From: an uncultured Alphaproteobacteria bacterium
Lineage (GTDB): Bacteria; Pseudomonadota; Alphaproteobacteria; Rs-D84
DNA: 64,000 bases
Reading direction: 5' to 3'
Assembly (NCBI GenBank): GCA_951801825.1
Contig: CATOOF010000001.1
Coordinates: forward strand, 380,132 to 444,131
Below the pieces are notes generated by a model. The model was not told the DNA's origin. It made no database searches and saw nothing but the letters and a program-made list of their open reading frames with translations. The translations under genes and the position numbers were made by a program. Shown here piece by piece: positions 3,134-56,405 of the stretch (position 1 is its first letter; the number at the start of each line of letters is the position of its first letter).

Positions 3134-3319
3134 TAAATGCGTGCCTGGGAATATTCCGGGCACGCAGAACAGATTTCTGTCCAAGACTGATGGCGCGGCA
3201 ACGCTTAAACCACCAGCCATCATAGACAAAGAAAAAATTCTTTGGGGCAGGAAAAAGCCCCATCCCGTGGTATCACGGATGGAAAGTTAAACAAAACGTA
3301 TGAAGTAAGGATAGAATAT
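3134..3319 (+). promoter_or_regulatory. rplJ (L10) leader region with hairpins. Candidate L10(L12)4 autoregulatory leader.
   Basis: Long untranslated region with GCGTGCC/GGCACGC and GGGGC/GCCCC stems upstream of rplJ. Confidence 0.4.
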
Positions 3320-3799: not shown

Positions 3800-3846
3800 T
3801 AAAACACACAATGGCGACATTGTGATAATGATAATAGGAGCAAAAA

Positions 3847-4212: not shown

Positions 4213-4340
4213 TTCGCCCCGCACGGAACCCTTTCGGTTCTTTATAAAAAATCCGCGGTATCCGCGGTCCGCCGCCGCCCGCCTGGGGATGAAATTCCCA
4301 GGCGGGCCGAGCGGCGTAAAAAGCATAATAAATAGTTTGT
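4213..4340 (+). terminator. rplL-rpoB intergenic attenuator/processing hairpins.
   Basis: GAACC/GGTTC stem followed by TTTATAAAAAA; CCGCGG-TAT-CCGCGG; 8-bp CGCCTGGG/CCCAGGCG stem. Confidence 0.45.
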
Positions 4341-4373
4341 TTGCAAAACGCACAAAAAAAAGGACTAAAACCC

Positions 4374-40967: not shown

Positions 40968-41057
40968 GGATGGTTGGCAGAGCGGTCGAATGCGGCGGTC
41001 TTGAAAACCGTTGAGGGTGCAAGCCCTCCGGGGGTTCGAATCCCTCACCATCCGCCA
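40968..41057 (+). tRNA. tRNA-Ser (anticodon TGA), long variable arm
   Basis: GGATGGTTGGCAGAGCGGTCGAATGC...CTTGAAAA...long extra arm...GGTTCGAATCCCTCACCATCCGCCA. Followed by a terminator hairpin at 41086-41115. Confidence 0.9.
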
Positions 41058-41184
41058 GGAATCAGTTATATTTTGAATATGTAAACATATCACGCGCAGG
41101 GCCCCGGAAAATTGGGGCGTTTTATTTATAACTCATCCATGGTATATCGTGAATTTTTAGAAAACGGCAAATAAAAAACACTTT

Positions 41185-41470
41185 CTATACATTGGCCTTT
41201 TTCGCCCTGGCAGTAGGTTTCGGGATTATATTTGATGCTTTGGTGCAATGGCAAAGATTTTCACCACACTGCACGGCATCAAATAATTCCTGGGGTATGA
41301 TTGGGGCATGTTCGCCACGGGCGGTGGTGCCGGTAACCTTGCACTCAACATAACCCAGATATATCTTACTGCGTAGCATTCTGTGCAATGCCATTTTCTT
41401 GATTGGATTCCCGCCAATAACGCGACCGCCGTGCGTCGCCCATTTCTTGGCATAAATCCCGATGGTGGGC
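41185..41470 (-). pseudogene. Remnant of a large serine recombinase (recombinase domain only; no resolvase catalytic domain, frame disrupted)
   Basis: Translation ...KKMALHRMLRSKIYLGYVECKVTGTTARGEHAPIIPQELFDAVQ matches the Recombinase-domain block (NPxYxG ... HEPIIsxELFexVQ) of large serine recombinases. Sits immediately next to the tRNA-Ser 3' end. Confidence 0.5.
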
Positions 41471-41653
41471 AGGTGTGGGAGAAAATAGAATGTGCAGAGT
41501 TAGAACCTGAGCCGGAACAATTGGATTTGTTTAAATAACACTTCCTTTCTCATAACGGTAGCTCCCGCTTTATTAGCTGTAACGCTTGTTAGGATTTTCC
41601 GGTGTAATAAATTCTATTGAAGTCCCGTAGTGTTTCTTTAGCAATATAACGCG

Positions 41654-42406
41654 TCAAATATAATGTATCGTGTATATAAGCTGTGTTGGCTGTTTGACGG
41701 ACAGTATTCCTGATAGGAGAGGTTGGCGTGAAACAGACTTCATAATATTTTTTAGTAATTCTTCTTTGCCAAAAAAATTTTTAAGGGGGAATATTTGCTC
41801 ATTATTTTTTATAGCTAAGATATCTAAGTGTATCTCTGTCTCATTATCATCGCATTTTTTTAAGGTCAGTATAGTTGCATTTGTATTCAGAGTTAGGTAA
41901 TAATCAGACTTTGTTCCTAAATCCTTATTGGCAGCACAGCTCATACATACTGCAAGTAAAGCAATGATAATATTTGAATTCAACTGCATTATATTATTAG
42001 AGTCTATGCTGATAATTTGTAATGACGGATCACTAGTGCCCCCTATAATGTTGAAATTGCTAGGAATTGATTTTCCATGATGGATGTGACATCGAAATAT
42101 ATGATACACAATTTCAGCCAAATCTGGCCCAAAGCATCCACCTACAACACGTCCTTTTTCATCCGTTATTTTTATACCTGGATAAAATTTCCAAGCCTCA
42201 CATTCTGGTAATCCCATAAAAGGTTCCATAATCCAGTAATAATTGCGTAGTAAATTTATATAGTCGTATCTTGAAATATAATCTTTGTTATACCAGTTTC
42301 TAGCAGTTCCTTCTATTGCCAATGTTGCAAAGTTAAATGCGGCTGTGAAATCTTGGGTGTTATAGGCATCAAGTGAGCGTTCTATGTTTCGAATTAATTC
42401 GGTCAT
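41654..42406 (-). CDS. Hypothetical protein (250 aa), AT-rich island cargo
   Basis: Clean ORF in a ~33% GC region. No recognisable motif. Confidence 0.45.
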   Translation of the reverse strand: MTELIRNIERSLDAYNTQDFTAAFNFATLAIEGTARNWYNKDYISRYDYINLLRNYYWIMEPFMGLPECEAWKFYPGIKITDEKGRVVGGCFGPDLAEIVYHIFRCHIHHGKSIPSNFNIIGGTSDPSLQIISIDSNNIMQLNSNIIIALLAVCMSCAANKDLGTKSDYYLTLNTNATILTLKKCDDNETEIHLDILAIKNNEQIFPLKNFFGKEELLKNIMKSVSRQPLLSGILSVKQPTQLIYTIHYI

Positions 42407-42529
42407 TTATTTATTCTTTTAGCTATGTATATAGGGATATTTTTGATAGGTTACAAGGTATATTCTTTTACAAGAAATCTACGACAAATGATATCGTAAG
42501 GATGTAATTTGTAAAAAGAACAGTAGGTG

Positions 42530-42955
42530 TTACAAATTTACAATCTCAATATCCGGGAACTGGGTGGCGATATATTCAGCGGCGAGTCTGCGGTGACATT
42601 GTAAAGCGCTCTTCTCGGTGCAGAGTAAGCATATTCGGTCAAGGTCGGGCGGGGCGAGCCCATCGGTCGGATGGCGTGTGGTCAGCAATTCATGGTACAT
42701 ACGCTCATAATCAGGCCAGGTAATGCGGCCGTCTTTGTAGCCGGCAAGGATTTCGGTGCTTGGGGCGAATTCTGTATGGTATTCATATCGGTCGCCCAGT
42801 GCGGCGGCCAAATTTGTGCCGCTATAAAACGGAACAAAACGACTGGTGCGCCACAGCCGAATATCCCAAACGCAACTTGCTTGGGTCGCGTTCAGGATAT
42901 CCATAAAATCGTCGGGCTTTTTGCCACTGAAGCCAATCGTAAAAATCTTTGCCAT
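42530..42955 (-). CDS. DUF488 (YeaO-like) family protein
   Basis: MAKIFTIGFSGKKPDDF...DIRLWRTSR N-terminal block typical of DUF488. Confidence 0.55.
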   Translation of the reverse strand: MAKIFTIGFSGKKPDDFMDILNATQASCVWDIRLWRTSRFVPFYSGTNLAAALGDRYEYHTEFAPSTEILAGYKDGRITWPDYERMYHELLTTRHPTDGLAPPDLDRICLLCTEKSALQCHRRLAAEYIATQFPDIEIVNL

Positions 42956-42956
42956 A

Positions 42957-43259
42957 TCAGTACAAAAATAGCCCGTTTAGCATCAAATAGCAATGATTTT
43001 CCTGCATCAGGAACTTTCGTGCCAATCCTATGCGGCAATGAGCGTACTGACTGTTGGAAATAGCATTGTTCAGACTTTTGATGTCTTTATCTTTTTCAAA
43101 TATATCACGTAAGTACTTGCAACTGACCTTTAATTCATAGGTTTGTTTGGAATAGTCCGTAATACGGGCACGCAATTTACCGTCTTCTGTAAAGAATTCA
43201 ATATTGTGTGCCGGAATCAATATGGCACCTAACGAAGGACATTTGGTTTTCTGTGGCAC
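42957..43259 (-). CDS. Hypothetical protein (100 aa), translationally coupled upstream partner of DUF488
   Basis: Stop codon 1 nt before the DUF488 start. AT-rich. Confidence 0.35.
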   Translation of the reverse strand: MPQKTKCPSLGAILIPAHNIEFFTEDGKLRARITDYSKQTYELKVSCKYLRDIFEKDKDIKSLNNAISNSQYAHCRIGLARKFLMQENHCYLMLNGLFLY

Positions 43260-43418
43260 ATAGGCATTTTCTTTGACGTGGTGATGGAATATGCCTTGTG
43301 TGTCTTTTTCCTCTTATGTTTGTGCAATGAATGCTTACAAACCGAGTCGAGTCAAGATATTAAGTATTGCTTGTAGTTATATAGTTGTTTGCTATGATTA
43401 GACAAATGGGAGAAATTA

Positions 43419-44408
43419 ATGCCAACAACTCGACATACTTTTGTTTGTCCAATATATAATATTGATGTAGATAATGATGTTTTGGGTGTTGATTATAATG
43501 GTTATATAATTATTTCTGCATCTGAATTTCACGAAAATTATGTGTCTCAATTATATTGTGATAATATGGGATTATTGGATGATATAAAATTACCGCAGCT
43601 TGGTTCAATAGTTGACCGGCCCACGGCTCGGTATATTATAATTTCTTATATAGATTTAGAAGATGGCTATAACCAAGATGTTATATCAGCTAATAACAAA
43701 AAGATAGATGAATTCTTTTGTGGCTTTTGCTTCGTAATAATGGCATTGAGATGGTTAGCCCCTGGAAATATACAGGTAAATAATGCTTATGTTTTATCAA
43801 GCAGAAGTGCAAGAAGAAGAGATTTTGGGATTTCTACACCATTGTATGGGCTAAGTAATATGTATACTGAAGGAACCACTCTTTTGTTCCTTAATAATTA
43901 TAGAATAACAGATGTTCTTTTAAATAGAGCGATTGAGCTCGGACAGAAAATAATAGATAATTATAGTGCCATCGAATATCCAGCGGTATATTTTAATCAG
44001 TATTACCAAACATATCATTTGCAAGATAAATTAATAAAGTTAATGACTTTGCTTGAAACTAGTTTAATGGGAGATAGTCCGATTGAAAAGCAATACGCAT
44101 TAATTTGTCGTGGATGTTATTTTTTGAATAAAAATATCGGGTTAACCTTAAAATGTGCATATTCAATCAGAAGTGAATATTTACATTCTGGTGATATTAA
44201 GCAGAAAACAGGTAAAAAAATTCAACAAATTGTGAATAAGCAAAATGAATGGGAAGCTTTATTTGTTTTTATAACGGAGTATCTCGAATTTATTTCTAGA
44301 GAAGTTTTAAATAAGTTATTTTTAGAAATTCTGGCTACAGGACATAAAATAGACCAAATAGATCGCGATTTAGATGAGCAAATTTATGCCAAATTAAGTA
44401 GCTCCTAG
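43419..44408 (+). CDS. Hypothetical protein with a possible HEPN-type Rx4H motif (Abi-like)
   Basis: C-terminal segment CAYSIRSEYLHSG fits the Rx4-6H HEPN signature. AT-rich. Assignment tentative. Confidence 0.35.
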   Translation: MPTTRHTFVCPIYNIDVDNDVLGVDYNGYIIISASEFHENYVSQLYCDNMGLLDDIKLPQLGSIVDRPTARYIIISYIDLEDGYNQDVISANNKKIDEFFCGFCFVIMALRWLAPGNIQVNNAYVLSSRSARRRDFGISTPLYGLSNMYTEGTTLLFLNNYRITDVLLNRAIELGQKIIDNYSAIEYPAVYFNQYYQTYHLQDKLIKLMTLLETSLMGDSPIEKQYALICRGCYFLNKNIGLTLKCAYSIRSEYLHSGDIKQKTGKKIQQIVNKQNEWEALFVFITEYLEFISREVLNKLFLEILATGHKIDQIDRDLDEQIYAKLSSS

Positions 44409-44582
44409 TTTTGGGTATTTAATCAGTTGATTTAAGTAATTCTTTATGCGAAACTGAAATTGAACTTATTGGGAATTGGGTTCGGGATTTGCCCAGAGAC
44501 GGCGGAACATTCGCTTGTTAACACCAACTCCCCGACCGCCATTATCCCATGGCGGTTAAATATTATCTATGGGAAGTAAATA

Positions 44583-45485
44583 ATGTCACATGAAATTCTG
44601 TTGAAAGATATTTTGGATGGGATAAAGGTAGATTCGTCTGCAAATCGTCGGCGCAAGCTGCGTTTCAATACTTCATGGATTGATCAGGATACAAAGATAT
44701 TCAGAGATTTCCGGTCAATGTATATGGATAATGACGAATGTTTTGTGCCATGGACTTTGTCTACTCGGTCGAATAAGCAAAAAAGACTTAGTGACATTGA
44801 CACGGTTTTTCAGTTTATTGAAATAGAACCGCATAAATGGTTGTTTGTAGGCGCATATGAAATAATTGACTTGAATTTGTCTGCGTTTGACAAAGTTATT
44901 GGTAAACCATTTGATTATGCAAATGCAAAAAGATTGGCCGAATTTGATAAGTTATCTGACAGATTAGTGGTGGAACACACTAATACACCAAAGAAATTTT
45001 TTTATACTGATCCTAATATAATTGACAATGTAAAGGTTTATACTATTTTGCCGCGACCGTATCGCGGTTCTGCAGAAGAGTTTCCAGGATATGAAAATGT
45101 ATGTAAAGATTATAAATCATTGTCGCATTGTATAAAAGACTCTGCGTGGCATGATGCCCTATGCAATGTATATGGTGTATATGTTTTGACTGATACAAAA
45201 ACTGGGAAATTATATATCGGGTCTGCAACGGGGGCGGATGGAATATATGGCCGGTGGCAAACTTATCTGAAAAGGGGATATGATGATTCTGATAAAGACT
45301 ATCCGAATAAAAAATTGAAAGAGTTGGTAAAAAAAGAAGGTATTAAATATATCCAGGATAATTTTCAATACAGCATATTAGAAATTTTCCCAAAGACAGA
45401 TATTGGATGCAATAAAGCGTTAGAACGCGAAAGTTATTGGAAAAATGTATTCAAAACGCGTATGTTTGGATATAATGATAACTAG
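44583..45485 (+). CDS. GIY-YIG nuclease domain protein with an uncharacterised ~190-aa N-terminal domain
   Basis: C-terminal GVYVLTDTKTGKLYIGSATGADGIYGRW...ALERESYW...FGYN reproduces the GIY, YIG, Arg, Glu and Asn positions. Confidence 0.65.
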   Translation: MSHEILLKDILDGIKVDSSANRRRKLRFNTSWIDQDTKIFRDFRSMYMDNDECFVPWTLSTRSNKQKRLSDIDTVFQFIEIEPHKWLFVGAYEIIDLNLSAFDKVIGKPFDYANAKRLAEFDKLSDRLVVEHTNTPKKFFYTDPNIIDNVKVYTILPRPYRGSAEEFPGYENVCKDYKSLSHCIKDSAWHDALCNVYGVYVLTDTKTGKLYIGSATGADGIYGRWQTYLKRGYDDSDKDYPNKKLKELVKKEGIKYIQDNFQYSILEIFPKTDIGCNKALERESYWKNVFKTRMFGYNDN

Positions 45486-45569
45486 GAATATCTAATGCTG
45501 TCAAAAGAGAAATGGGCTTTAGAATAGGCAGAATACAAAGACGTTAGTTGTAACTTTGGATATACCATA

Positions 45570-45956
45570 TTGCATAAGACGGGTAATACAGAATACTTGT
45601 CGGGCGCGTTTCGCAGTGCATTTGCAGAATGGACGACATTTAAAGATATAGAAAGCATGGCGTCTTTTATCGCGCTGTTATTATCTAGCCGGGTATTGAT
45701 TGAAGTTGATGTTTTATCAGCAGAGATATTTCCAGAACTGGAGCAATCTAAAATATTACAGTTTGCGCCGGGAATGTTAGATACATCAACCTTTCAATAT
45801 ATGGCTTTTAATGATGCAATGGCTGTGCCGGAAGTTCGTGATATAGAGGCAGGCGTTGGCCCATGTTTATCTATTTTTACCGCTTTGCCAGAATTGCGCG
45901 AAATCCAAGATTTGGATAAGCGAATATTTATATATGTTGATTTTAGACGCGTTTAG
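45570..45956 (+). CDS. Hypothetical protein (128 aa). GC higher than its neighbours.
   Basis: Clean ORF, convergent with the ParB-like gene. Confidence 0.4.
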   Translation: MHKTGNTEYLSGAFRSAFAEWTTFKDIESMASFIALLLSSRVLIEVDVLSAEIFPELEQSKILQFAPGMLDTSTFQYMAFNDAMAVPEVRDIEAGVGPCLSIFTALPELREIQDLDKRIFIYVDFRRV

Positions 45957-45979
45957 GATTGGTTGTGCCGGCCAAGCCG

Positions 45980-46471
45980 TCAGATGTCGCCCCGGTGGCA
46001 CTGCTGGTCTTCGTCAGTCAGCGCGGGAATGGCATCCGCTTTCGGATCACTTGCTCCATCACCGTCCAGAATTAGGTCAATCTCGGCGGTCTCAAAACCG
46101 GAGATTTCCAGATTGAAATCCAGGTCCAGGTTGCTCAATTCACTGAATTCCAGATTCAACAATTCGATACTCCATTTGCCGAGTTCCGTAAGTTTGTTGT
46201 CCGCGATGCGGTACGCGCGTTTTTGTGCATCCGTCAGATGCGACAGAATAATTGCCGGCACTTCGATCATGCCGGCATCCTTGGCCGCCGCCACGCGCCC
46301 ATGCCCGGTGATGATTTCCAGATTCTCGTCCAGCAAGACCGGATTGATAAACCCGAACTCGCGGATGGATTCGCGTATTTTTGCGACTTGGACTTTGGTA
46401 TGCAGCTTCGGGTTGTTTTTGTACGCCCGAATGTCAGTTATTTTTATGTTTTGGATTTGTAAGTTGGTCAT
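45980..46471 (-). CDS. ParB-like nuclease domain protein (ParB/Srx N-terminal domain only)
   Basis: IREFGFINPVLLDENLEIITGHGRVAAAKDAG contains the ParB GxxR box. ATG 46471 has a GGAG SD; ORF-track 46582 is an upstream extension. ~50% GC inside an AT-rich island. Confidence 0.6.
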   Translation of the reverse strand: MTNLQIQNIKITDIRAYKNNPKLHTKVQVAKIRESIREFGFINPVLLDENLEIITGHGRVAAAKDAGMIEVPAIILSHLTDAQKRAYRIADNKLTELGKWSIELLNLEFSELSNLDLDFNLEISGFETAEIDLILDGDGASDPKADAIPALTDEDQQCHRGDI

Positions 46472-46687
46472 TAGACACTCCGTATAAGTTTTGTTAATCA
46501 TCACTATAAATTTTTTATAGGGGGGTATATATATGGAAAAGTGAAAGTTTACTTGAGTGTTCGCGCCACGAAACCTATACACTTTCCCTCTTATAAGGCG
46601 ATCTGAAAGTTTATGTTTTGATATATGGCTAAAAATAATGTGTTATACTTGAAAAAATGGCTGGTGTGATATATATAGAAATATACT

Positions 46688-48265
46688 ATGAGAATTAATA
46701 AGTCGGCGGGTTTAAACGAGTCAGAGCATCGTCTTGTAAAACTAGGCGAGAAGGTTTTTATGGGATTATGGAGTTATCCTAATCCCAAAATAAAAACCTC
46801 ATCAGGAACCCCGGAATTATGTGATTTGTTAGTTGTTTGTGGTAATAATGTACTAGTTTTCTCAGATAAAGATATCAAATTCAATGAGGATAAAGACTTA
46901 TTAGTGGCTTGGCGCAGATGGGAGCGGAAAGCTATATTAAAATCGATAAATCAGTTAAGACATGCCGAAAATATTATAAAAGATCATCCAGAAAAAATAT
47001 TATTGAATGATACAGATCCTTTTCCTTTGTCATTTCCTGCAAAGAGGGATTTAAAAATACGTTTAATATGTGTGGCAAATGGGGTAGCGGAAGCGTGTAA
47101 AAGATATTTTGGTAAAGGCTGTACAGGAAGTTTAAAATTTTCTAACTTAAACGGTTATACTCAGGTGTCAGATAAGGACTTGTCTAAGTTACCTGTTAAG
47201 GAAAGAGAAGAGTATAAAGAGAGTACGATATTCACTATAGCTGATTATGATTCATTAAAAACCTTTGTACATGTTTTTGATGATTATTCTTTCCCGTTTG
47301 TTTTACAGGAATTAGATACATTGACGGATTTCGTTAAATATTTGGAAGAAAAGGAGCGTTTTATAAGATCTGGGGTTGCGGTATGTTATACTGGCGAAGA
47401 GGATTTATTATACAATTATTTAAAAGAGTTTGATGAAGAACGCAATTGTCATACATTTGTAAATCCAAAAGAAACTAATGCAAATGTATTTATGTTTATG
47501 GAAGAGGATTGGAATTCATTTAAACAGTCCCAACAATATATTGCTCGTATAAAAGCTAACCAAAAAAGCTATTTCTGGGATCAGCTTGTTCAACATAATG
47601 CCCAATGTACATTGGCCGGTATTACTAAAATTTTTGCTACTGCGTCAGCAGACTGTGATATTGCTTTTCGGTATATGGCGCTAGAGGATCGATTGTCGCG
47701 CAGAGCATTTTCCGATAGAATGATAGCTGCAATCAGCAATTTCCCCGATAATTATACGCCAGACAATCACTATATGAGTGCATTTTTCTCTTTTGTGAAT
47801 GATGGATTATTGTACATATTTTTACAAATTCCCAAGGAAAACAACAGTTCTCATGGTGATTACTTAAAAGCTAGACGTGATAAAATGCAAATTTACGCCA
47901 ACTGTGCCAAAGCTAGATGTGAAATAGAGGGTAAGTTTGTAGACAAGGTTATATGTATTGCAACTGAGCCGATGAGAATTGTGAAAAATGTTGATATAGA
48001 CATAATGCTAATGGATATTAAAGAATGGAATACAGAACTACAGAACCATTGGGAATCGGCACGTCGAAACTTAAACATATTTAGAAAATCATTTAAAGAT
48101 CTGCAGCATGCAAAAGAAAAAGAATGGCCTGAGTCTCCGATTTTTGTGCAAAAACGAACTAAAAAGATAGGTCAAAATGATAAATGTCCATGTGGTAGTG
48201 GATTAAAATACAAGAAGTGCTGCGGAAGTGTTTTGAAACCCAAAAAACAAATACCTTACATATAA
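46688..48265 (+). CDS. NERD-like nuclease-related domain protein with a C-terminal SEC-C metal-binding motif
   Basis: N-terminus GEKVFMGLWS...ELCDLLVVCGNNVLVFSDKDIKF matches the NERD pattern (E...ExDhvvv...vfvxExK). The terminal CPCGSGLKYKKCCG is a SEC-C motif. Confidence 0.5.
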   Translation: MRINKSAGLNESEHRLVKLGEKVFMGLWSYPNPKIKTSSGTPELCDLLVVCGNNVLVFSDKDIKFNEDKDLLVAWRRWERKAILKSINQLRHAENIIKDHPEKILLNDTDPFPLSFPAKRDLKIRLICVANGVAEACKRYFGKGCTGSLKFSNLNGYTQVSDKDLSKLPVKEREEYKESTIFTIADYDSLKTFVHVFDDYSFPFVLQELDTLTDFVKYLEEKERFIRSGVAVCYTGEEDLLYNYLKEFDEERNCHTFVNPKETNANVFMFMEEDWNSFKQSQQYIARIKANQKSYFWDQLVQHNAQCTLAGITKIFATASADCDIAFRYMALEDRLSRRAFSDRMIAAISNFPDNYTPDNHYMSAFFSFVNDGLLYIFLQIPKENNSSHGDYLKARRDKMQIYANCAKARCEIEGKFVDKVICIATEPMRIVKNVDIDIMLMDIKEWNTELQNHWESARRNLNIFRKSFKDLQHAKEKEWPESPIFVQKRTKKIGQNDKCPCGSGLKYKKCCGSVLKPKKQIPYI

Positions 48266-48277
48266 ATAGGATGTAAG

Positions 48278-48454
48278 ATGCCGGTTTTTAATAGAAATGG
48301 AGAAGTGATAGGTGTAATTACAGAAACGCCAGATCCAGAAGGTGATTATGATAAATTTGGTTACGGGGTAGCAATTCCTATGGAATATATAGAACAGCTA
48401 GAAAATGAATATGATAGAAAAATAACTTTTATGGATGATATTAATTGTGTGTAA
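48278..48454 (+). pseudogene. Trypsin-fold protease C-terminal fragment, in frame with and separated by a single TAA from the preceding gene
   Basis: IGCKMPVFNRNGEVIGVIT...GYGVAIP parallels the GNSGGPLVNLNGEVIGINT...GIGFAIP block of HtrA/S1 proteases with Ser replaced by Cys. There is no upstream His/Asp region, so it is likely a remnant. Confidence 0.35.
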
Positions 48455-48487
48455 TTAAAATTATCTTTATAACTAATCGTTATTATA

Positions 48488-49873
48488 TTAATAAAATCCA
48501 AATTTTAATTTCCTATTCTCTATTTCTGATTGTAGCATATCAAAATTGAAATCAGAACGATTTATATTTTTATAAAATTTTAGTAAATGATAATGAAAAG
48601 AATTGTGAAATGTCTTTTTTATCATACTATCTAACAAAGTAATATAGTAATCTTCTCTGTTAAGCTCTTTCATTATTTTATATACATTAGATAGTCTAAA
48701 ATCCGGAGAATCTGCAAGAATAGTTTCATCTAGTATAGATGTAATAGTTGGTTCTAATAGTTCATTTTCAAGAAAGTTTATTCCTTTTTTCACTAATAGT
48801 GTAATTATTCGTTTTATCACTCTATCAGATCTAAATGCATATTTTTTCATTTTGTAGTCAAAGAACTCTCTAACAGCAGAATTAAAATTTTCTTTTGTGG
48901 TATCGTCGGATAAGCAACTAATAATATCAAAAGCTTGGTAAATTCTATATTCTGATGCTTTCATAATATGAACTTTACCAACATTTATATTAAGTCCAAT
49001 CTTATATAAAATTTTGGATGCTTCAAAGATATGTTTTTCTGCGGTATACTTATCGTTGCTAAATATTGCCATATCATCAGCAAAACGTATATAAGAAGAA
49101 CCGGAAGCTTGTGTTAAGTTAAATATGCGTTTGTCAAATTCTCTCAGATAAAAATTTGCAAGCTGTCTGGAACAATCGCCGACTTCGTCTTGCGGTATGC
49201 CGGTATGTCGACTAAAATATCCGTCAAAAGGTTTGTTCCAGTAATGTAAAAAGTACATTAGTAAATCAAGTTCATTGCTAAGAGTATTGGGTATTTTATG
49301 GCGCAGGCGTTTTTCTAATAAATCAACTTTTATATTGTCATAGAAGTTAGCTATATCAAATATTGCTACATAAAAATCCTCTCCGAATTTTGATTGATAA
49401 TCTAAAAATACGGAATATGCTTTTCTGGTATATTCATTCCATTCGTTCAACCATGCTCGAATATCTATTGCTGCAGCTGGAAAGTATTGGATTGTATCCA
49501 ACATAAGAAGGTCTTCAAAATTTTCTATTTCTTTAATTGGATTGCTAAATCTCCAGCCGCCAAATGTTCCTTGTGTCCTATCTTTTATGTCGCATATGTA
49601 ATCTTGGAGTTTGTTTAAACAGTAAAAATATGCACAATAGTCTGTAAATTCAAACGTTGGTACTATTCTGGCGACATTACCACCTTTGTTAAATATTATA
49701 TAGTCTCTTGGAATTGTCGGTTGATATGTATTGTTTGAGATGTCGTTATACAAATTAGATAAACCGGTTTGTATATCAATAAGAGGAAACTCTATTAGGG
49801 ATTGTTTTTTTACATGTTTTGCAAAAGGTAACATTGAAGCGATAAACTCAGACTTAGTTTCATGAATTTGCAT
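48488..49873 (-). CDS. Reverse transcriptase of the Abi/retron/DRT-like (non-intron, non-LTR) type, 461 aa
   Basis: RT motifs 1-2 (IFNKGGNVARIVP), A (VAIFDIANFYDNI), B' (GIPQDEVGDCSRQLANFYL), C (YIRFADDMAIFS), D (KIGLNINVGKVHI). ~140-aa alpha-helical C-terminal extension. No maturase or endonuclease domains. Confidence 0.75.
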   Translation of the reverse strand: MQIHETKSEFIASMLPFAKHVKKQSLIEFPLIDIQTGLSNLYNDISNNTYQPTIPRDYIIFNKGGNVARIVPTFEFTDYCAYFYCLNKLQDYICDIKDRTQGTFGGWRFSNPIKEIENFEDLLMLDTIQYFPAAAIDIRAWLNEWNEYTRKAYSVFLDYQSKFGEDFYVAIFDIANFYDNIKVDLLEKRLRHKIPNTLSNELDLLMYFLHYWNKPFDGYFSRHTGIPQDEVGDCSRQLANFYLREFDKRIFNLTQASGSSYIRFADDMAIFSNDKYTAEKHIFEASKILYKIGLNINVGKVHIMKASEYRIYQAFDIISCLSDDTTKENFNSAVREFFDYKMKKYAFRSDRVIKRIITLLVKKGINFLENELLEPTITSILDETILADSPDFRLSNVYKIMKELNREDYYITLLDSMIKKTFHNSFHYHLLKFYKNINRSDFNFDMLQSEIENRKLKFGFY

Positions 49874-50199
49874 AAATTTCCTCTTTTCTGGAATTATAAT
49901 AGGAAAGTGTTTGGTGGTCCAGAATATAGTTATACCTTGAGAGGTATATCAAAAACTTATGAAGCTGATATGTGTTGCCATAATTATGCCGGGTGTTGCG
50001 CCAATAATCATCAATAGTACCTAAATTTTCCCAGATAATACAAAATATTGCTAATTTGTGAGCCGAGATTAGCGATAAGTTTTTATGTTCGTATTCGAAA
50101 AAGTGAATAAAATCGCGTAGTTTTTCGGTTTGTATTCAAAATAATTTGATGGTTTTGCAATGATTTTTAGGTTGTCGCCAAATAATGGCAATCTATACC

Positions 50200-50390
50200 T
50201 TGGCGGGGGTGGGGCGGGGATGTTCCCTGATGTGGGCGGGTGAAATCCCTGTTCCTAATATAAAAATTCCCTGTTATTTTTGTGGGAAATTTTGTGAAAG
50301 TCCCGGAAATCGGGTGCAACGGGTGAAAACGGGGGCGCCGAGATGCCGAAAGTTCCCTGTTAATCCCTGTATTTTGTTGTATGGCGTTTG
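50200..50390 (+). repeat. Locally GC-rich array of five TCCCTGT(T) direct repeats (starts 50224, 50246, 50268, 50354, 50364; spacings 22, 22, 86, 10 nt) interleaved with three GGGTGAAA motifs
   Basis: Read directly from the sequence. The overlapping ORFs 50185..50439 (+) and 50167..50532 (-) are judged non-coding. Confidence 0.6.
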
Positions 50391-50450
50391 CCGTAGAATA
50401 TTGGTGCGCCGTCAGGAATATATTATTGAAATTGCTTAATCTTTTTACAA

Positions 50451-50485
50451 AACATCCGATGTCTGTCGGATGTTCTTTTATAGGT
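50451..50485. terminator. Bidirectional intrinsic terminator (AACATCCGA/TCGGATGTT 9-bp stem, 6-nt loop, T/A runs either side)
   Basis: Perfect inverted repeat followed by CTTTTATA on the plus strand and preceded by TTTTTACAAA. Confidence 0.65.
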
Positions 50486-50557
50486 TTTAAGGGCCAAATT
50501 CGACTTTTGTGGGGGTAAAAATAAACAGGCAACAGTTGTTATAAAAATGAAAACATT

Positions 50558-51067
50558 GTGTTTACGCCCAACACCCCAGCTGAAAAAGCAACATTTGAAA
50601 AGCCGGTTAATACAATGCCTGGTTACTATGCGGTATTTGATGACAAGCAATTTACATTGTATGTGGATGATAAACCGGTAATATCATGGGATGCTGTATC
50701 TGGTCGTTCCGGTTACCAAAGCCCAGAATGTCAAGACCAAAAATCCACAGGGCCAATCCCAGAAGGGACGTATGTTGCAAGACAGGAAAAACTACAGTTT
50801 ATGTCTGCTACAGATTGGCTTATTGGCTGGACGACTAAAGTTACTGATAGGGGTGTTTGGCCCGGGTCTTCAATGTCTTGGGGAAGCTCGCGTGTCTGGT
50901 TAGAACCATCAAAAGAAACAAATACGTTTGGTCGAGGTGGTTTCAGTATTCATGGTGGCGAGGAGCCCGGTTCTGCTGGTTGCATTGATCTAACAAGTGA
51001 AATGCCAGGGTTTGCAGATTGGTTCAAAAAGAATGGAAAAGATTTAATTATTAAAGTAGAGTATTAA
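50558..51067 (+). CDS. DUF2778/Tlde1-like L,D-transpeptidase-fold protein (candidate peptidoglycan-targeting toxin)
   Basis: GRGGFSIHGGEEPGSAGCIDL has the His...Ser-x-Gly-Cys catalytic arrangement of YkuD/Tlde1 domains. Start uncertain (GTG 50558 or ATG 50615). Confidence 0.6.
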   Translation: MFTPNTPAEKATFEKPVNTMPGYYAVFDDKQFTLYVDDKPVISWDAVSGRSGYQSPECQDQKSTGPIPEGTYVARQEKLQFMSATDWLIGWTTKVTDRGVWPGSSMSWGSSRVWLEPSKETNTFGRGGFSIHGGEEPGSAGCIDLTSEMPGFADWFKKNGKDLIIKVEY

Positions 51068-51082
51068 AAACAAAGGCATAAA

Positions 51083-51409
51083 ATGAAAAAAATATTAAAC
51101 ATAACAAGTTATGTCGCGACAATATGTTTGTTTTGTGCCCTGTATATTTTTTTATTTGATTTGGTTTGTATCGGCAAAATTTCAAAATTTAATCATATTT
51201 GGGCAAATGCTTGTCAGTTTGATATTGAAGGCGCATATCTAACCTGTATGACAAATTATGATGTTTCGTGCATTGTGTTGTTGTTGCTCATATTATCTTT
51301 TATGTTATTGCGGCTAATAAGAGTATATAACAAACGTGTCCTGCTCGTTCCGATTTGTGGTTTTTTATTGTTTGTGTTGTCTGTTATAACATGTTGGGGG
51401 CTTGTCTAA
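51083..51409 (+). CDS. Small multi-TM membrane protein, candidate cognate immunity protein
   Basis: Three hydrophobic helices, 15 nt downstream of the Tlde1-like gene. Confidence 0.45.
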   Translation: MKKILNITSYVATICLFCALYIFLFDLVCIGKISKFNHIWANACQFDIEGAYLTCMTNYDVSCIVLLLLILSFMLLRLIRVYNKRVLLVPICGFLLFVLSVITCWGLV

Positions 51410-51515
51410 AACGTTCCTTCTTTGCTCGTTAGATATGGTACGGTTAACTGTTTCTGGATTCGTATATGCCAGGTCTAGGTGGCGGTAAAACTGGCGTGGT
51501 AGTGATTGACGAATG

Positions 51516-52502
51516 TTATGAGTTCTTTATCGCATATTCGGCATATTTTGGACATTCAAAAAAATACTTGGCAAATTCAGCGTCAATCTCACTAAGCCGT
51601 CGTATTGTACCGTCGCTGTCGATAAAAGGTGGATCAACACGCCGCATCTTTTGCGACAGGATAATACCATCTTGGTCGTCTATGGTTGTGCGCCATGCGT
51701 CCGGTGCTTTATACATTGGTGAAAAATCAACCCCGGCCAAATGCATTTTGCGTATAACCTGCATATCGTTTAGCTCAAGGAATTCTTCGCGTGTTAAAAT
51801 TTTCCGCTCTATGGCATTGCGACAAATCCGGGCCAGCATTTCTTCGTAAAACGTAGCGCCATAGCTTGAATAAATCTCTTCGTCGGTCTGATTAAACACG
51901 CGTGCGAACATTTTTGCTGATTTTGCATCCTGTAATACAAATCCATCTGGTGTTGCGACGATTGCCCGGCTTAGTGCTACTTCGTCACAGTCCAACAGCT
52001 TGCCGTGATGGTGCATGTGTGGAATTGCACGCAGACAATAATCAAGTCTGTCCGCGCACAGGTCCGGCAAATCACGTTCTTTTAATATAAATTTTGAGTC
52101 GTCTAATATTTCATCAAGACAAAAGCCGGCACGGGTAATAATTTCCGCCAGCTCAGAGTTTTTTACAAATTTATCGTGAATGTCATCCTGGTATTCCTGT
52201 GTTCTGGATGAGGTTTCGCCGCCGAACAAGCGGTCCGATAAATGCGAGAACGCCGTATGTGACACGTCGTGTATCAGGCCTGCAATTTGTTCCGCCATAG
52301 ATGCGCCATGAATTCGCAACAACATAAACACGCCAATTGAATGATGATATCGGGATACGGGAATGGAGTAAAAAGGCCGACATGGTACCCATGGCCCCAT
52401 GTTTATTCCCTGCAGGCGCTGAAACGTTGGCGCGGCGATAATTTCTTGAAAAACCGGCTCTTCTACATTCAGTACGCCGTAAATTCTATCGCAACAAATC
52501 AT
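51516..52502 (-). CDS. HD-domain metal-dependent phosphohydrolase
   Basis: H...HD...D motif set (YHHSIGV, HDVSHTAFSH, DRLDY). Confidence 0.7.
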   Translation of the reverse strand: MICCDRIYGVLNVEEPVFQEIIAAPTFQRLQGINMGPWVPCRPFYSIPVSRYHHSIGVFMLLRIHGASMAEQIAGLIHDVSHTAFSHLSDRLFGGETSSRTQEYQDDIHDKFVKNSELAEIITRAGFCLDEILDDSKFILKERDLPDLCADRLDYCLRAIPHMHHHGKLLDCDEVALSRAIVATPDGFVLQDAKSAKMFARVFNQTDEEIYSSYGATFYEEMLARICRNAIERKILTREEFLELNDMQVIRKMHLAGVDFSPMYKAPDAWRTTIDDQDGIILSQKMRRVDPPFIDSDGTIRRLSEIDAEFAKYFFECPKYAEYAIKNS

Positions 52503-52619
52503 GGTGTCTAATATAGCGTAAAGTTATATATTTTTCAAGTTTTTAAATGTATTTGTTCCTGATGATTTTATTTGCCAAATAGTCCAAAATTACACCAACC
52601 AACCAAAGGAGTTTTTAAT

Positions 52620-53147
52620 ATGATGCTGAGATTAAAAATATATTCAACCGTTTTTATTTTGTATGAAATATTGGCGGTATGGCTGTTGCACTGTCCGCGC
52701 ACATGTACCGCGATGTTCGGCAACACCTTCTGCAGCGACAGTGTATTTAAATACTTTATCGCGCTGTTTGCGATTCCGGCGATTGTGGGGCTGATTGTTA
52801 TGTGGATTATGCATATCATACATGCGGTCCGTCGCCGTCACTCGTTCTTTTATCGCGCCCAAGAAGCGGTCGAAGATGTTGCCACATCCATTAAAAAGAC
52901 GTTAAAAGAATCCGTATCCAGCAAGGATATTGAAAAGTATATTGTTGCAGCATTGGCGGCCGGCGTGAAGAAGTATTCTGATAAAAATCCGGAACTTAAA
53001 AAGACGTTTGGCAATATCATTGGTGCGATAACGGGTCGTCCGGCGGAATACGCGATTGATGATGACGAAGATGATTACGAAGAAGATGCAAAACCGTCAC
53101 CGCGTCGCGCAAAGGGTAAAAACAACTCTTCTCGCCGCAGTCGCTAA
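52620..53147 (+). CDS. Membrane protein with two TM helices and an acidic/basic low-complexity tail (hypothetical)
   Basis: ATG 52620 with SD AAAGGAG. ORF-track 52572 is an upstream extension. Confidence 0.5.
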   Translation: MMLRLKIYSTVFILYEILAVWLLHCPRTCTAMFGNTFCSDSVFKYFIALFAIPAIVGLIVMWIMHIIHAVRRRHSFFYRAQEAVEDVATSIKKTLKESVSSKDIEKYIVAALAAGVKKYSDKNPELKKTFGNIIGAITGRPAEYAIDDDEDDYEEDAKPSPRRAKGKNNSSRRSR

Positions 53148-53201
53148 GCGGACCGTCCATAATTAGATTAGGCAAAAAAATCGCCCCATTCGGGGCGTTT
53201 T

Positions 53202-53588
53202 TTATAGGGTTTTAATTTTGGCGTTATCTAACTGCGTTCTTAGCAGTTTGCATTTCTTGTCGCATGCATCCATCAGGTGGGTTATATAAAACGTCACAAC
53301 AAACATAGCAGGATAAACAAACAGGCCGGCTCTTGTATGTACTTCGGGGGAAATAATGTCAGATGCGATTATTGATGCAAGTGCCACCAGCTCCGCAATC
53401 AATGCGGCGTTTAATTTAACGGATGTTCTGTATAGGGATTTTAGTGTTTTTCTTATTTCCTGCAGCTTTTTTGCAACGTCTTCCTTGCCAAGGGCTTGCT
53501 CTATAGATATCAGAAGGTCGATATCAAGAATGGTTTTGTCAAACAGACGTTTTTGCTGCAGTGGTGTAGTAAGGTTTTCTAGTTTCAT
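53202..53588 (-). CDS. Hypothetical protein (128 aa)
   Basis: Clean ORF. Bidirectional terminator at 53175-53203 shared with the upstream gene. Confidence 0.4.
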   Translation of the reverse strand: MKLENLTTPLQQKRLFDKTILDIDLLISIEQALGKEDVAKKLQEIRKTLKSLYRTSVKLNAALIAELVALASIIASDIISPEVHTRAGLFVYPAMFVVTFYITHLMDACDKKCKLLRTQLDNAKIKTL

Positions 53589-53700
53589 AATGCGTGATTA
53601 TATTGACATGTTTTGCTATTGTCAAGTCCTATAGTATTTGTTATTGCAAAATACTGGAAAGGGTATAATATTACGCATGTAAATATTTAGGGGTAAGAAA

Positions 53701-55062
53701 ATGCCAGCAAAAACAATCAATGATATTGTCGCATTATGCAAGCGGCGCGGTTTTATATTCACGGGTTCCGAAATATACGGCGGTCTTGGCGGGGCCTATG
53801 ATTACGGTCCGTATGGGGTCGAGTTGATGCGCAATATACGCGATGCCTGGTGGAATGCGATGATATACTCGCGCAATGATGTCGAAGGATTGGATGCGGC
53901 ACAAATCAGCAATCGTCTGATGTGGAAATATTCCGGGCACGAGGGCGGATTTTCTGATCCCTTGGTTGAATGTAAAAAGTGTGGTGCACGCATGCGCCAG
54001 GATAAAATGGCTGACCCCACAAAATGCGACAACTGTGGCAGTGCTGATATCACGGAACCGCGCGCATATCAGCTGATGATGGGGCTGTCCATCGGTGCGA
54101 TGGCCGACGGGGCTGTAAATGCGTATCTGCGTCCGGAAACGGCGACAACGACATATGTTAATTTTAAAAATGTTTTGGATGCCCGCCCGCATAAGTTGCC
54201 GTTTGGTATCGCCCAGATTGGTAAAGCGTTTCGTAACGAAATATCGCCGCGTGGTTTTGTTTTCCGCATGCGTGAATTCGAACAGGCCGAGATGCAGTAC
54301 TTCGTTCGTCCTGATACGGACGAGAAATATTTTGAAATGTGGAAGGCCGCACGTATGGCGTGGTGGACGGATGCCCTGGGAATCCCTGCGGAAAAGTTGC
54401 GTTTTACACCGCACGAAAAATTGGCACACTATGCCAAGGCCGCATGTGACATCGAATATGAATTCCCCGATGGCTTTGATGAGGTAGAGGGTGTTCACAA
54501 CCGCCAAGACTTTGATTTAGGCAGTCACACCAAGGCACAGTCGGAATTTAAAATAAACGCCAACGTGATGGAGAACAAGGACAGCACGGTAAAACTGTCG
54601 TACAGCGACCCCCAGACGGGCGAGAACTTTATCCCGTATGTAATTGAAACGGCGATGGGTGTTAACCGCGCAATGCTGGCGGTAATGCACAACGCATATA
54701 CCGAAGAAGAGCTACCGGACGGTAAATCGCGACTGGTGTTGAAATTGCGTCCGAAATTGGCCCCAGTTAAGGCGGCGGTTATTCCGCTGGCGCGTAATGT
54801 GCCGGAATTGTTGGATATTGCCACAAATATTGAAAACGATTTGCGGCGCTTGGCCATTGGCCGCATAGAGTTGGAAAATTCCGGAAATATTGGTAAAAAT
54901 TATCGTCGTCATGATGAAATCGGTACGCCGGTCTGCATCACGGTTGACCACCAGACATTAGAAGATTCTACGGTGACACTGCGTCTGCGTGACACCATGG
55001 AACAGCGTCGCATCAATATCGCGGACGTTCCGGCCGCCGTTCTGGAAATAATAAACGGATAA
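53701..55062 (+). CDS. glyQS: Glycyl-tRNA synthetase, dimeric alpha2 type
   Basis: GFIFTGSEIYGGLGGAYDYGPYGVELMRNI and class II motifs. Terminator at 55066-55098. Confidence 0.9.
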   Translation: MPAKTINDIVALCKRRGFIFTGSEIYGGLGGAYDYGPYGVELMRNIRDAWWNAMIYSRNDVEGLDAAQISNRLMWKYSGHEGGFSDPLVECKKCGARMRQDKMADPTKCDNCGSADITEPRAYQLMMGLSIGAMADGAVNAYLRPETATTTYVNFKNVLDARPHKLPFGIAQIGKAFRNEISPRGFVFRMREFEQAEMQYFVRPDTDEKYFEMWKAARMAWWTDALGIPAEKLRFTPHEKLAHYAKAACDIEYEFPDGFDEVEGVHNRQDFDLGSHTKAQSEFKINANVMENKDSTVKLSYSDPQTGENFIPYVIETAMGVNRAMLAVMHNAYTEEELPDGKSRLVLKLRPKLAPVKAAVIPLARNVPELLDIATNIENDLRRLAIGRIELENSGNIGKNYRRHDEIGTPVCITVDHQTLEDSTVTLRLRDTMEQRRINIADVPAAVLEIING

Positions 55063-55414
55063 TAAAAAATCCCCGCCGTTTGGCGGGGGGATTTTTTTGC
55101 TTCTGTTTATGTGTTGCACAGGGGCGCGGTATTTTTCCCTTCGTTTGCTTTTTTTAGGACGCCGGCCCTAACTCTTTTATTGTAGTTGGCTTCGGTTTTA
55201 TTTGTTTATTGCATGCGGTTGTTTTAGGGGGAGGATAGTTCTTTATTCTTGCAAATGTTTCATTGGATTGCGGGCTTGTGTCTTTATAGGAAAACTTCCG
55301 TGAAAATTTTAGTTGAATTTTATATGTGTTTCAATCACAATAAGAAACGAGTCCTTGGATTTTGATTGGTGTAAAGGAAAATCGAAAATATAGAAATTTA
55401 AAGGAGAGGGAAAA

Positions 55415-55660
55415 ATGACACATGCAGATATGTGGAATGCAATAGACAGTTTCGCCAGCAGTCGTGGTATGACCTGTTCTTGTATGGCGCGACGCAGCGG
55501 ACTTGATTCAACAACATTGAATCGCAGCAAGCGTTGGACACGCGACGGTAAACCGCGATGGCCATCAATGCAAAGTGTGGCAAAGGTTCTAGATTCAAAT
55601 AATGCGTACATGATAGATTTTGCGCGTTTTTGTCCAATGCCTGACGACAAAGAAAAATAA
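55415..55660 (+). CDS. Small XRE/phage-repressor-like HTH protein (81 aa)
   Basis: Strong SD AAAGGAGAGGG. SSRGMTCSCMARRSGLDSTTLNR HTH segment. Confidence 0.55.
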   Translation: MTHADMWNAIDSFASSRGMTCSCMARRSGLDSTTLNRSKRWTRDGKPRWPSMQSVAKVLDSNNAYMIDFARFCPMPDDKEK

Positions 55661-55680
55661 AATGTGTGTGGCTCAAAAAA

Positions 55681-55705
55681 ATACGGGGATACCCCGTATT
55701 TTTTT
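55681..55705. terminator. Bidirectional terminator between the HTH gene and nrdG
   Basis: ATACGGGG/CCCCGTAT stem plus T7. Confidence 0.75.
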
Positions 55706-56405
55706 ATTCGCGCCAAATAACAGATTCAAACATGGTGTTTATTTTGTCTCGCAAAACATTGTCGTTGAAAAACTGTTCCCGCATGTCGGCTGTTGTTTTG
55801 TCTTTTTCATCGTCAAAATGTGGAATGTATTTTTGTATTGCAATATTTTTCACACCGCGTGCCGCTAACATATCTGTAATTTCTGATAGGTCGGATTTTG
55901 TCATAAAACGCGGATCGCATGTCATGCGCACCTCTAACTCGTGACCCGTCGCCAGCCATATGTCCAGCGATTGTATCATTCTGTCGTATGCGATGTCATT
56001 CCCGGCCAGTTTTTTATACTTTTCGCGGGTTGCCTTGAAATCCAGTCCCACCCAGTCTACGGTTTGTGCCGCCTGGCGTAACTGTTCGGGATAAAAACCG
56101 TTTGTATGCAGCCCGATTGAAAACCCAAGTGCCTTTACACGCCGCATAAAGGCCAGTGTTGCTTCGCCCTGCATCAGGGCCTCGCCGCCGGAAAACACAA
56201 CTGCCTCCAGTTTACCAACGCGGTTTTCCAGCATTGCGAATACTTTTTCTGGGTCGTATTCGCCGTCCCCCACATCCAGTAAATGGCGGTTGGAACAATA
56301 CGCACACCGCAACGGACATCCCCTCAGAAACAGCACCGCGGCAATTTTCCCCGGATAGTCGATTGTGGTAAACGGAACCAATCCGCCAATCTGGACATCT
56401 GGCAT
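55704..56405 (-). CDS. nrdG: Anaerobic ribonucleoside-triphosphate reductase activating protein (radical SAM)
   Basis: GCPLRCAYCSN CxxxCxxC motif. Directly downstream of nrdD. Confidence 0.85.
   Translation of the reverse strand: MPDVQIGGLVPFTTIDYPGKIAAVLFLRGCPLRCAYCSNRHLLDVGDGEYDPEKVFAMLENRVGKLEAVVFSGGEALMQGEATLAFMRRVKALGFSIGLHTNGFYPEQLRQAAQTVDWVGLDFKATREKYKKLAGNDIAYDRMIQSLDIWLATGHELEVRMTCDPRFMTKSDLSEITDMLAARGVKNIAIQKYIPHFDDEKDKTTADMREQFFNDNVLRDKINTMFESVIWRE

Follow-up and report, generated by a model that had tools for sequence, protein, structure and literature searches.

A phased box array beside a UG13b reverse transcriptase gene very probably belongs to the end module of a serine-recombinase phage-like element

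The window analysed here is a 64,000-nt stretch of DNA from an uncultured Alphaproteobacteria bacterium (Rs-D84; GCA_951801825.1, contig CATOOF010000001.1, positions 380,132-444,131, forward strand). Its region 50200-50490 holds an array of short direct repeats, located in a 684-nt gap between a reverse transcriptase (RT) gene on the minus strand and a Tlde1/YkuD-like open reading frame (ORF) on the plus strand. The array is a cis-element, not previously described though familiar in concept, of a phage-like element that encodes a large serine recombinase (LSR). It belongs to a family of arrays with a shared gene context, adjoins an attachment-like (att-like) core and tRNA-Ser, and is independent of the RT family. 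The RT and the Tlde1-like gene fill variable cargo slots that flank the module, and the position of the array between them is incidental. With moderate confidence, we read the whole stretch as a conserved non-coding module at the end of an LSR phage-like integrative element, left here as a relic with the RT as cargo. The identity of the module is held with high confidence; an accessory role in recombination is put forward as its mechanism more tentatively.

The box array and its relatives in viral contigs

The initial annotation of this DNA placed TCCCTG on the plus strand at 50224, 50246, 50268, 50354 and 50364, with spacings of 22, 22, 86 and 10 nt, inside a GC-rich stretch of an AT-rich island. 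The recount agreed exactly, and the GC content was 0.50 over 50200-50399 versus about 0.31-0.35 in the flanks. Over the full window TCCCTG was not enriched, with 20 matches on the two strands where 16.5 would be expected. Five copies lay inside 150 nt, while 300 block-wise shuffles reached a cluster of three at most, and that only twice. Three copies of GGGTGAAA had also been reported; two are exact (50238 and 50321, the only exact sites in the region) and the third, at 50312, is the variant GGGTGCAA.

The repeat unit is longer than TCCCTG and is clearest on the minus strand, the strand of the RT, where it reads (a/t)aACAGGGAa(a/t), equal to (T/A)AACAGGGAA. The five-box array (50224-50370, minus strand) is made up of ACAGGGA at 50370-50364, 50360-50354, 50274-50268 and 50252-50246 and of CAGGGA at 50229-50224. 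Read on this strand, a pair of boxes 10 nt apart is followed by an 86-nt gap and then by three boxes 22 nt apart. An inverted half box (50284-50289; TTTCCC on the minus strand, GGGAAA on the plus strand) lies 9 nt before box 3 and corresponds to the arrangement TTCCCT-N(about 12)-ACAGGGAA of the family described below.

IMG/VR viral contigs were searched with a 24-base pattern (ACAGGGA N2-6 ACAGGGA N70-100 TAACAGGGAA). It matched 17 contigs, where about 0.1 would be expected by chance according to our own estimate, which was not computed by the search tool. Two wider scans yielded 45 canonical viral arrays with the same geometry as in the window. An array was called canonical when a box pair 10-13 nt apart was followed by a gap of 86-121 nt and then by at least two boxes at 21-22 nt, all in one orientation; the window array, with spacings of 10, 86, 22 and 22, has this canonical layout of the ACAGGGAA box family. 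The consensus of 87 boxes is a-a-T-A-A-C-A-G-G-G-A-A. Forty non-redundant arrays served for the alignment, the att-motif counts, the RNAalifold analysis and the reading-frame counts. The palindrome TTCCCTG-cta-ACAGGGAA, followed by a direct box, was present in 27 of these 40, the inverted half box preceding box 3. A profile HMM was built from 38 viral arrays, with the window and a related RT locus, L162, left out (L-numbers denote loci and contigs fetched for comparison), and was searched with nhmmer. It matched the window at 50370-50219 on the minus strand (E=3.1e-13) and nowhere else in it. L162 was matched at E=8e-9, and among the other RT loci only L161, a second assembly of the window locus, was found.

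The gene context of the 45 arrays was counted within the fetched DNA only. An LSR with Resolvase and Recombinase domains accompanied 41 arrays, and a DUF2924 gene lay directly upstream of the LSR at 37. A ParB-N/methyltransferase gene was present with 34 arrays, a DUF5681 protein in the small-terminase position with 33 and a large terminase with 28. Three gene orders recurred. The first runs array, ParB-methyltransferase, small terminase, large terminase, DUF3489, DUF2924, LSR; the second is a circular permutation of the first, with the LSR 240-460 nt before the array; in the third, a convergent LSR cassette comes after the array and the packaging genes come last. Taken with the elements described in the next section, the order in intact relatives is LSR, terminator hairpin, palindromic att core, about 50 nt, array, ParB-methyltransferase, DUF5681 small terminase and large terminase.

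Integrated copies retain the array at their end, flanked by variable cargo. The cargo beside the array was a retron of type VI in L177, DuOB, DUF488 and a DrmMII-like methylase in L173, AbiTii in L179 and the UG13b RT in the window and L162. The retron of L177, an AT-rich viral contig, occupies 2827-4746 directly downstream of the array (HTH_VI and RT_VI). Two unrelated RT systems, retron VI and the UG13b RT, therefore share one slot in different elements. L184 has a host histidine kinase in the array flank.

Seven contigs (L169, L172, L168, L203, L280, L285 and L291) consist of units of about 7 kb that contain only the array, ParB-methyltransferase, DUF5681, large terminase, DUF3489, DUF2924 and LSR, with no portal, capsid or tail genes between terminase and recombinase. 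They may be pieces of larger prophages, or they may represent a minimal satellite-like element. A search of the 7-kb contigs for circularity revealed no direct terminal repeat. Neither cultured phage genomes nor PLSDB plasmids gave a blastn match to the element. No description of the array was found in the literature, where DUF2924 beside a recombinase receives only a passing mention, for Wolbachia phage WO. Comparison of the DUF2924 sequence with solved structures gave no informative match.

The attachment-like core, tRNA-Ser and the decayed island

Alignment of the 40 arrays revealed a conserved block, AGACTGCG-TGGCGGAGGA-CGCAGTCT..GCGAAC..TCTCCG, upstream of the boxes. The corresponding att motif, TGGCGGAGG..CAGTC..GCGAAC..TCTCCG with the palindromic arms GACTGCG/CGCAGTC, was carried by 33 of the 40, and in 29 of these 33 the motif TGGCGG lay 50-54 nt before box 1. 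The centre of the core is the reverse complement of the tRNA-Ser 3' end (TCCTCCGCCA), placed between inverted arms of 7-8 bp. L181 contains an intact tRNA-Ser that ends ...CCCTCCGCCA|GACAGTCTC, 167 nt before the array; this junction is the tRNA end joined to one arm of the element. Genes for tRNA-Ser were located 180-250 nt beyond the arrays of L323 and L350, which come from an unbiased sample of DUF2924-LSR loci, and array-less DUF2924-LSR relatives have tRNA-Ser or tRNA-Gln genes beyond the recombinase gene. An intact tRNA beside the array was seen in only a few contigs.

The array of the window is preceded by a degenerate att-like core, ATTCCTGACGGCGCACC (50403-50419, minus strand), 44 nt before box 1. 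It carries TGACGG where the family has TGGCGG, and such a short match is not significant alone. The sequence was assigned as att-like because of its position and its alignment with L173 and L177. On the plus strand the core reads CCGTCAGGAAT and resembles CCGCCAGGAAT, the tRNA-Ser 3' end with its flank at 41052-41062. The gene for tRNA-Ser(tga) occupies 40968-41057 on the plus strand and, with its 3' junction ATCCGCCA|GGAAT, extends to 41062. This junction, tRNA plus element arm, is the putative integration site of the island. The junction sequence TCCGCCAGGAAT is the reverse complement of the array-side motif TTCCTGGCGGA of L177, and a copy with one to two mismatches, GCCGTCAGGAAT, adjoins the window array.

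Beyond the att-like core, at 50451-50474, stands the GC-rich hairpin AACATCCGA-TGTCTG-TCGGATGTT with A/T runs on both sides. The initial annotation had described it as a bidirectional terminator, and it is present as described: it scores as a plus-strand terminator, and the minus strand also has a T-run. In one of the two options offered there, it would also end a plus-strand structured RNA. L173 and L177 have counterparts of the hairpin beside their att-like motif, although the genes that follow differ. It is therefore a conserved part of the module, probably the terminator at the recombinase end of the element, and not the 3' end of an RNA transcribed from the repeats.

Other genes of the family were found in the window in decayed form. 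Upstream of the array, a C-terminal remnant of an LSR lies at 51398-51520 on the minus strand (tblastn, 45% identity over 44 aa, E=8e-5); an LSR upstream of the array, in array orientation, is also found in L177, L182 and L162, the remnant of L162 giving E=7e-7. A second LSR remnant, corresponding to residues ~207-331, is located at 41224-41523 on the minus strand (tblastn, 49% identity over 84 aa, E=7e-20), where the gene caller also marks a Recombinase-family fragment, 167 nt from tRNA-Ser. The ParB-N/DNA-methyltransferase gene, which belongs to the family backbone and usually comes after the array, is represented by a truncated copy at 45980-46582 on the minus strand, with 37-48% identity by tblastn to the ParB-methyltransferases of the viral contigs. 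No terminase gene is left in the island of the window.

The RT, the Tlde1-like gene and the other defence genes of the island are read as cargo. The RT (48488-49873, minus strand, 461 aa) lies immediately downstream of the array and was assigned to the UG13b class (PADLOC RT_UG13b, E=6e-112; Pfam RVT_1). The slot between the recombinase remnant and the hairpin holds the Tlde1/YkuD-like ORF (50558-51067) and a small hydrophobic, membrane-type ORF (51083-51409), both on the plus strand. Truncated DuOB and DUF488 genes (42533-43307, minus strand) encode proteins 93% and 83% identical to the cargo directly after the array of L173. A UzuA-like GIY-YIG protein (44583-45485) and a SEC-C-motif protein that matches phrog_18195 (46688-48265) are both encoded on the plus strand, opposite to the array, and an HD-domain protein lies at 51516-52502. 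Read on the minus strand from 51520, the order is LSR remnant, Tlde1-like and membrane ORFs (other strand), hairpin, core, array and RT; then the SEC-C gene (other strand), the truncated ParB-methyltransferase gene, the UzuA-like gene and a 329-aa ORF (other strand) and DuOB/DUF488; and finally a 250-aa ORF, the LSR remnant at 41523-41224 and tRNA-Ser at 41057-40968. The AT-rich island, 41058-53600, is a mosaic of defence-type cargo, with decayed phage backbone genes of higher GC content in between. We infer that it comprises two decayed elements in tandem at tRNA-Ser, with the array at their junction.

Several further observations were made around the module. The island, from Lgt/tRNA-Ser to the Tlde1-like gene, was present at >=99.8% identity in L306-L311 and L161, from several unrelated metagenome samples, so that it is fixed in this organism. 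The 350 nt that separate the array from the RT start contain two copies, 41 nt apart (50078-50100 and 50119-50141), of the 23-nt AT-rich direct repeat AGTTTTT(A/C)(T/G)GTT(C/T)GTATTC(G/A)AAA; this stretch is absent in L162, whose array and RT are only about 90 nt apart. At 53115-53214 on the plus strand there is a sub-threshold Rfam match to Atu_C8 (26 bits versus a gathering threshold of 50), essentially a GC-rich terminator hairpin downstream of the ORF at 52572-53147. L172 bears a perfect 83-nt inverted terminal repeat (1-105 and 7040-7122) that begins exactly at the att-like core, with the full palindromic core at one end and a different tRNA-like 3' end (..CCCAGCCCCACCA) at the other; possible origins are an inversion, a tandem junction or an assembly artefact.

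Two other arrangements for the end of the element were considered and rejected. A crossover within the array, splitting it between attL and attR, does not agree with integrated copies, which retain both clusters, and the 13 arrays without the left palindrome half resemble diverged palindromes and not host DNA. A Tn7- or Mu-like transposon end, suggested by the 22-nt spacing and a TGTGGGCGG string, was discarded because transposase genes are lacking and the family is one of serine-recombinase elements.

Function of the boxes

The boxes are read as protein-binding DNA and not as folded RNA because they are conserved in both orientations, with variable spacer sequence and copy number. An accessory role in recombination is favoured because the spacing to the att-like core is constant. 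The boxes would be bound as double-stranded DNA by an element-encoded protein, for which DUF2924 or DUF3489, which travel with the recombinase, or the small terminase are candidates. With sites two helical turns apart, the bound proteins would align on one face of the helix and could form a nucleoprotein complex on one att arm. Such a complex might control integration and excision, by analogy with the arm and Xis sites of lambda-type attP or with the accessory sites of res, and it is from this analogy that the array is given a putative role in recombination. The UG13b RT, the SEC-C protein and the Tlde1-like gene would be defence or toxin cargo placed in two variable slots beside the module. 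The array of the window is taken as a relic, or as a site used in trans by related elements, because the recombinase, methyltransferase and terminase genes have been destroyed or lost. The initial annotation had offered, as its second option, an iteron-like array of protein-binding sites, recombinase arm sites included. This was right in kind, the array being located about 50 nt from the att-like core of serine-recombinase elements.

Several points weigh against an accessory role at an attachment site. The array adjoins the 3' end of the large terminase, not the recombinase gene, in L173, L188, L198 and L229. Only 11 of 80 DUF2924-LSR viral loci sampled irrespective of the array possessed it; the array is therefore no general requirement of this recombinase family, and a de novo search for substitute repeats in the array-less DUF2924-LSR relatives gave nothing convincing. 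The att match of the window is degenerate, only 11-12 nt long and weak alone (12 matches at <=2 mismatches versus 5.5 expected). No empty site was found, since all 19 contigs with the flanking Lgt protein came from the same near-identical strain with the island present. The five boxes are perfectly preserved amid decayed element genes, which is unexpected for a dead relic. The box-binding protein is putative, and LSRs are not known to need accessory sites.

One array-less relative, L319, contains at ~7020-7200, beside tRNA-Ser(gga), an inverted pair TCCCTG-N10-CAGGGAA and one more CAGGGAA. This suggests that within the family the array was lost, or diverged, by degrees.

A bolder proposal is that a tRNA-Ser-targeting clade of LSR elements uses phased accessory sites beside attP, to which a partner protein, for instance DUF2924 or DUF3489, would bind as a directionality or architectural factor of a recombinase class not known to require more than minimal att sites, or else that the array is a packaging signal by which decayed islands are mobilised via related phages. 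We regard this proposal as possible but doubtful.

Packaging initiation was also weighed in its own right. In a pac-type site, the small terminase would bind the box clusters and the DNA would be cut in the ~90-nt interval, so that the decayed island could be packaged by related phages. The commonest gene orders put the array upstream of, and pointing towards, the ParB-methyltransferase and the small and large terminases, and the two-plus-three layout about an interval of ~90 bp resembles the pac sites of P1 and SPP1. Intact boxes amid decayed genes would also make sense if they were used in trans. The array precedes the packaging operon in arrangements of types (a) and (a'), and in the remaining types it is convergent or 3-5 kb distant. 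However, the distance to the terminase genes ranges overall from 0.3 to 5 kb, and the array is convergent with the large terminase in four contigs. About half of the viral contigs start <=600 nt upstream of the array, but these starts are spread over 17-470 nt without a single position and are therefore not defined physical ends. The tight coupling, at 50-54 nt, is with the att-like core and not with any terminase gene, and the array is missing from most relatives that share these terminase genes. A packaging site is thus unlikely, though it deserves to be kept in mind.

Regulation of transcription is a somewhat weaker candidate and appears rather improbable. An element regulator would act on the array as an operator/promoter module and control rightward transcription, of the packaging genes in phages and of defence cargo such as the RT here. 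Operators typically combine palindromic with direct boxes. In the window, L162, L173, L177 and the type (a) contigs, a gene that runs the same way begins 260-620 nt past the first box. On the minus strand, a sigma-70-like sequence, TTGTAA-17-AATAAT, lies a short way upstream of the array, at 50450-50422. However, in the commonest arrangement, what comes after the array is the 3' end of a convergent recombinase gene and not a gene dependent on a promoter. The RT has promoter-like sites of its own at 49952-49893, near its start, in a stretch conserved with L162, and promoter matches in the region were no commoner than in shuffles (5 versus 3.6).

Iterons of a replication origin, served by an initiator from the element or from a helper phage, are very unlikely. 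Direct repeats phased at 22 bp are a hallmark of iteron origins, and in 34 other viral contigs (L209, L218 and others) a DnaD_N/HTH_36 replisome-organizer gene contains the nonamer AACAGGGAA as 3-5 tandem boxes. In these contigs, cI/cro-like and DnaC-like genes flank the boxes and an AT-rich stretch follows, a layout like that of lambda ori. However, they were found by a search with the box sequence, their spacing is 11-13 nt, and they have no genes in common with the canonical arrays. Beside the canonical arrays there is no DnaD/O-like, Rep, initiator, primase or helicase gene, and in GC-rich members there is no extended AT-rich unwinding region.

A partnership with the RT was tested first, because the RNAs of DRT2, DRT9 and DRT10 precede their RTs. 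UG13b is one of the class 2 UG/Abi groups and has a predicted defensive role; Mestre et al. 2022 describe no non-coding RNA (ncRNA) for it (PMC9226505). The ncRNAs of DRT2, DRT9 and DRT10 sit upstream of their RTs (UG2, UG28 and UG17, respectively), and the template is reset via ACA-1/ACA-2 in DRT2 and via an A-B-A' pattern in DRT10 (PMC11100668, PMC12632851). Like these systems, the window has a sizeable non-coding stretch with short repeats upstream of a class 2 UG/Abi RT. An ncRNA from either strand would by analogy serve the UG13b RT as template or guide; the initial annotation had offered such a structured RNA, on the plus strand, as its first option. In its favour, the array is upstream of the RT, on the RT's strand, in both the window and L162, the repeated ACAGGGA could in principle permit template jumping, and the plus strand of the window folds better than its shuffles (z=-3.05; minus strand, -0.19).

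The comparison with RT homologues did not support this proposal. The UG13b sample comprised 160 loci from genomes and metagenomes and 7 more obtained by exact-protein look-up, 167 in all. The array was absent from 165 of them and present only at L161, which is the same locus, and L162, so that the co-occurrence with RT homologues anticipated for an RT-linked element was not observed. Gaps upstream of the UG13b RTs are mostly short, often <100 nt or overlapping, and most are too short for the array; no shared motif and no recurring repeated 7-mer was found upstream of the RT homologues in the 167 loci. Conversely, 45 viral contigs carry the array, and tblastn of 17 of them revealed no relative of the window RT. 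The RT of L162 is 57% identical to that of the window, and about 200 nt align between the two loci, including the box pair, a CGCCCCC stretch and the block TTCACAAAATT(T)CCC..AAAAA.TAACAGGGAA. L162 also has the same order of LSR remnant, cargo, array and RT. The array occurs at both RT loci because the whole module descended together, as the shared LSR remnant indicates, and common descent explains the synteny.

The plus-strand fold of the window was not matched in L162, where the two strands folded no better than shuffles (z=+0.96 and +0.79). Covariation was examined with RNAalifold over the 40 arrays on the RT-sense strand and gave zero consensus pairs, which is only a weak negative because the alignment is gappy. 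An Rfam scan of 44000-56000 at E<=1 returned only the unrelated weak match at 53115-53214 described above, and no retron match; the window RT is of the UG13b and not the retron type, and no msr-msd of a retron was recognised. Whereas the ncRNAs of DRT2, DRT9 and DRT10 are conserved across their RT family together with their secondary structure, the array of the window is not associated with UG13b, has no conserved fold and occurs mostly without any RT. An RNA interpretation of the repeats is not supported, and an RT-associated ncRNA is highly improbable.

Protein coding, as a small ORF or as a DRT2-like stop-free unit that would give an endless ORF after rolling-circle copying, can practically be dismissed: in four AT-rich arrays the distance from box 1 to box 3 is a multiple of 3 (window 96, L162 129, L173 108, L177 120) and the ACA GGG frame is open for 72-124 codons (50167-50532, minus strand, in the window), but these frames were judged non-coding because they have no conserved start codon, no conserved peptide and no family-wide constraint, the distances in the 40 arrays falling 16/10/14 over the three mod-3 classes, the spacer peptides being unrelated and only the codons dictated by the boxes being conserved. 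A Neo-like endless ORF, which fitted the window and L162, was ruled out on the same family-wide statistics and for want of a start and a conserved peptide. The two ORFs predicted over the repeats (84 aa, plus strand; 121 aa, minus strand) were rightly regarded as artefacts in the initial annotation, as neither matches Pfam and the 121-codon frame has no ATG.

Implications and comparison with known systems

The landmark of att-like core, terminator and box array marks the end of widespread phage-like elements of alphaproteobacterial type. Flanked by hypervariable defence cargo, it can help to delimit islands and to find new cargo. If the accessory-arm reading is true, the two slots flanking the module would be preferred landing sites for the UG13b RT, retron VI, AbiTii and DuOB/DUF488. 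No partner RNA of the UG13b RT is demonstrated here, and searches for one should turn elsewhere or accept that none exists. If the boxes do act with the recombinase, they would be unusual accessory sites for an LSR, and this would bear on the control of LSR directionality and on the use of LSRs in genome engineering.

The array shares features with four kinds of known DNA sites. Like the pac sites of P1 and SPP1, it has two clusters of short repeats that flank ~90-100 bp near terminase genes. Unlike them, its position relative to the terminase genes is variable, and there is no sign of cleavage or of defined ends. With iteron origins, such as lambda ori inside gene O and plasmid iterons, it has in common short direct repeats at ~22-bp or 11-bp phasing. 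However, no initiator gene lies beside the canonical array, its boxes fall into two separate clusters, and it goes together with an att-like core and a recombinase gene.

Closer parallels are provided by recombination sites. In the res sites of Tn3/gamma-delta resolvase and of Sin/beta, the same recombinase binds all subsites. The array resembles res in that a serine-recombinase core is accompanied by repeated sites of ~9 bp, inverted and direct, tens of bp away. It differs from res in that the boxes do not resemble the arms of the att-like core, and a different binding protein is therefore expected.

Lambda-type attP has phased direct arm sites beside the crossover core, and the N-terminal domain of the tyrosine integrase binds these arms. 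The only recombinase of the present elements is an LSR, and the array flanks the core on a single side; no tyrosine integrase occurs in the conserved gene set of the module, although no search dedicated to it was made. Like lambda-type attP and the Xis sites of mycobacteriophage L5, the array is a cluster of phased direct repeats beside a core in a tRNA-targeting temperate element. Its two-plus-three distribution resembles P1-P2 and P'1-P'3 of lambda attP, and, as in lambda, the sites stay at one end of the prophage after integration. Repeated sites that flank a core at an integration junction, as in lambda-type attP, are thus found in the array family.

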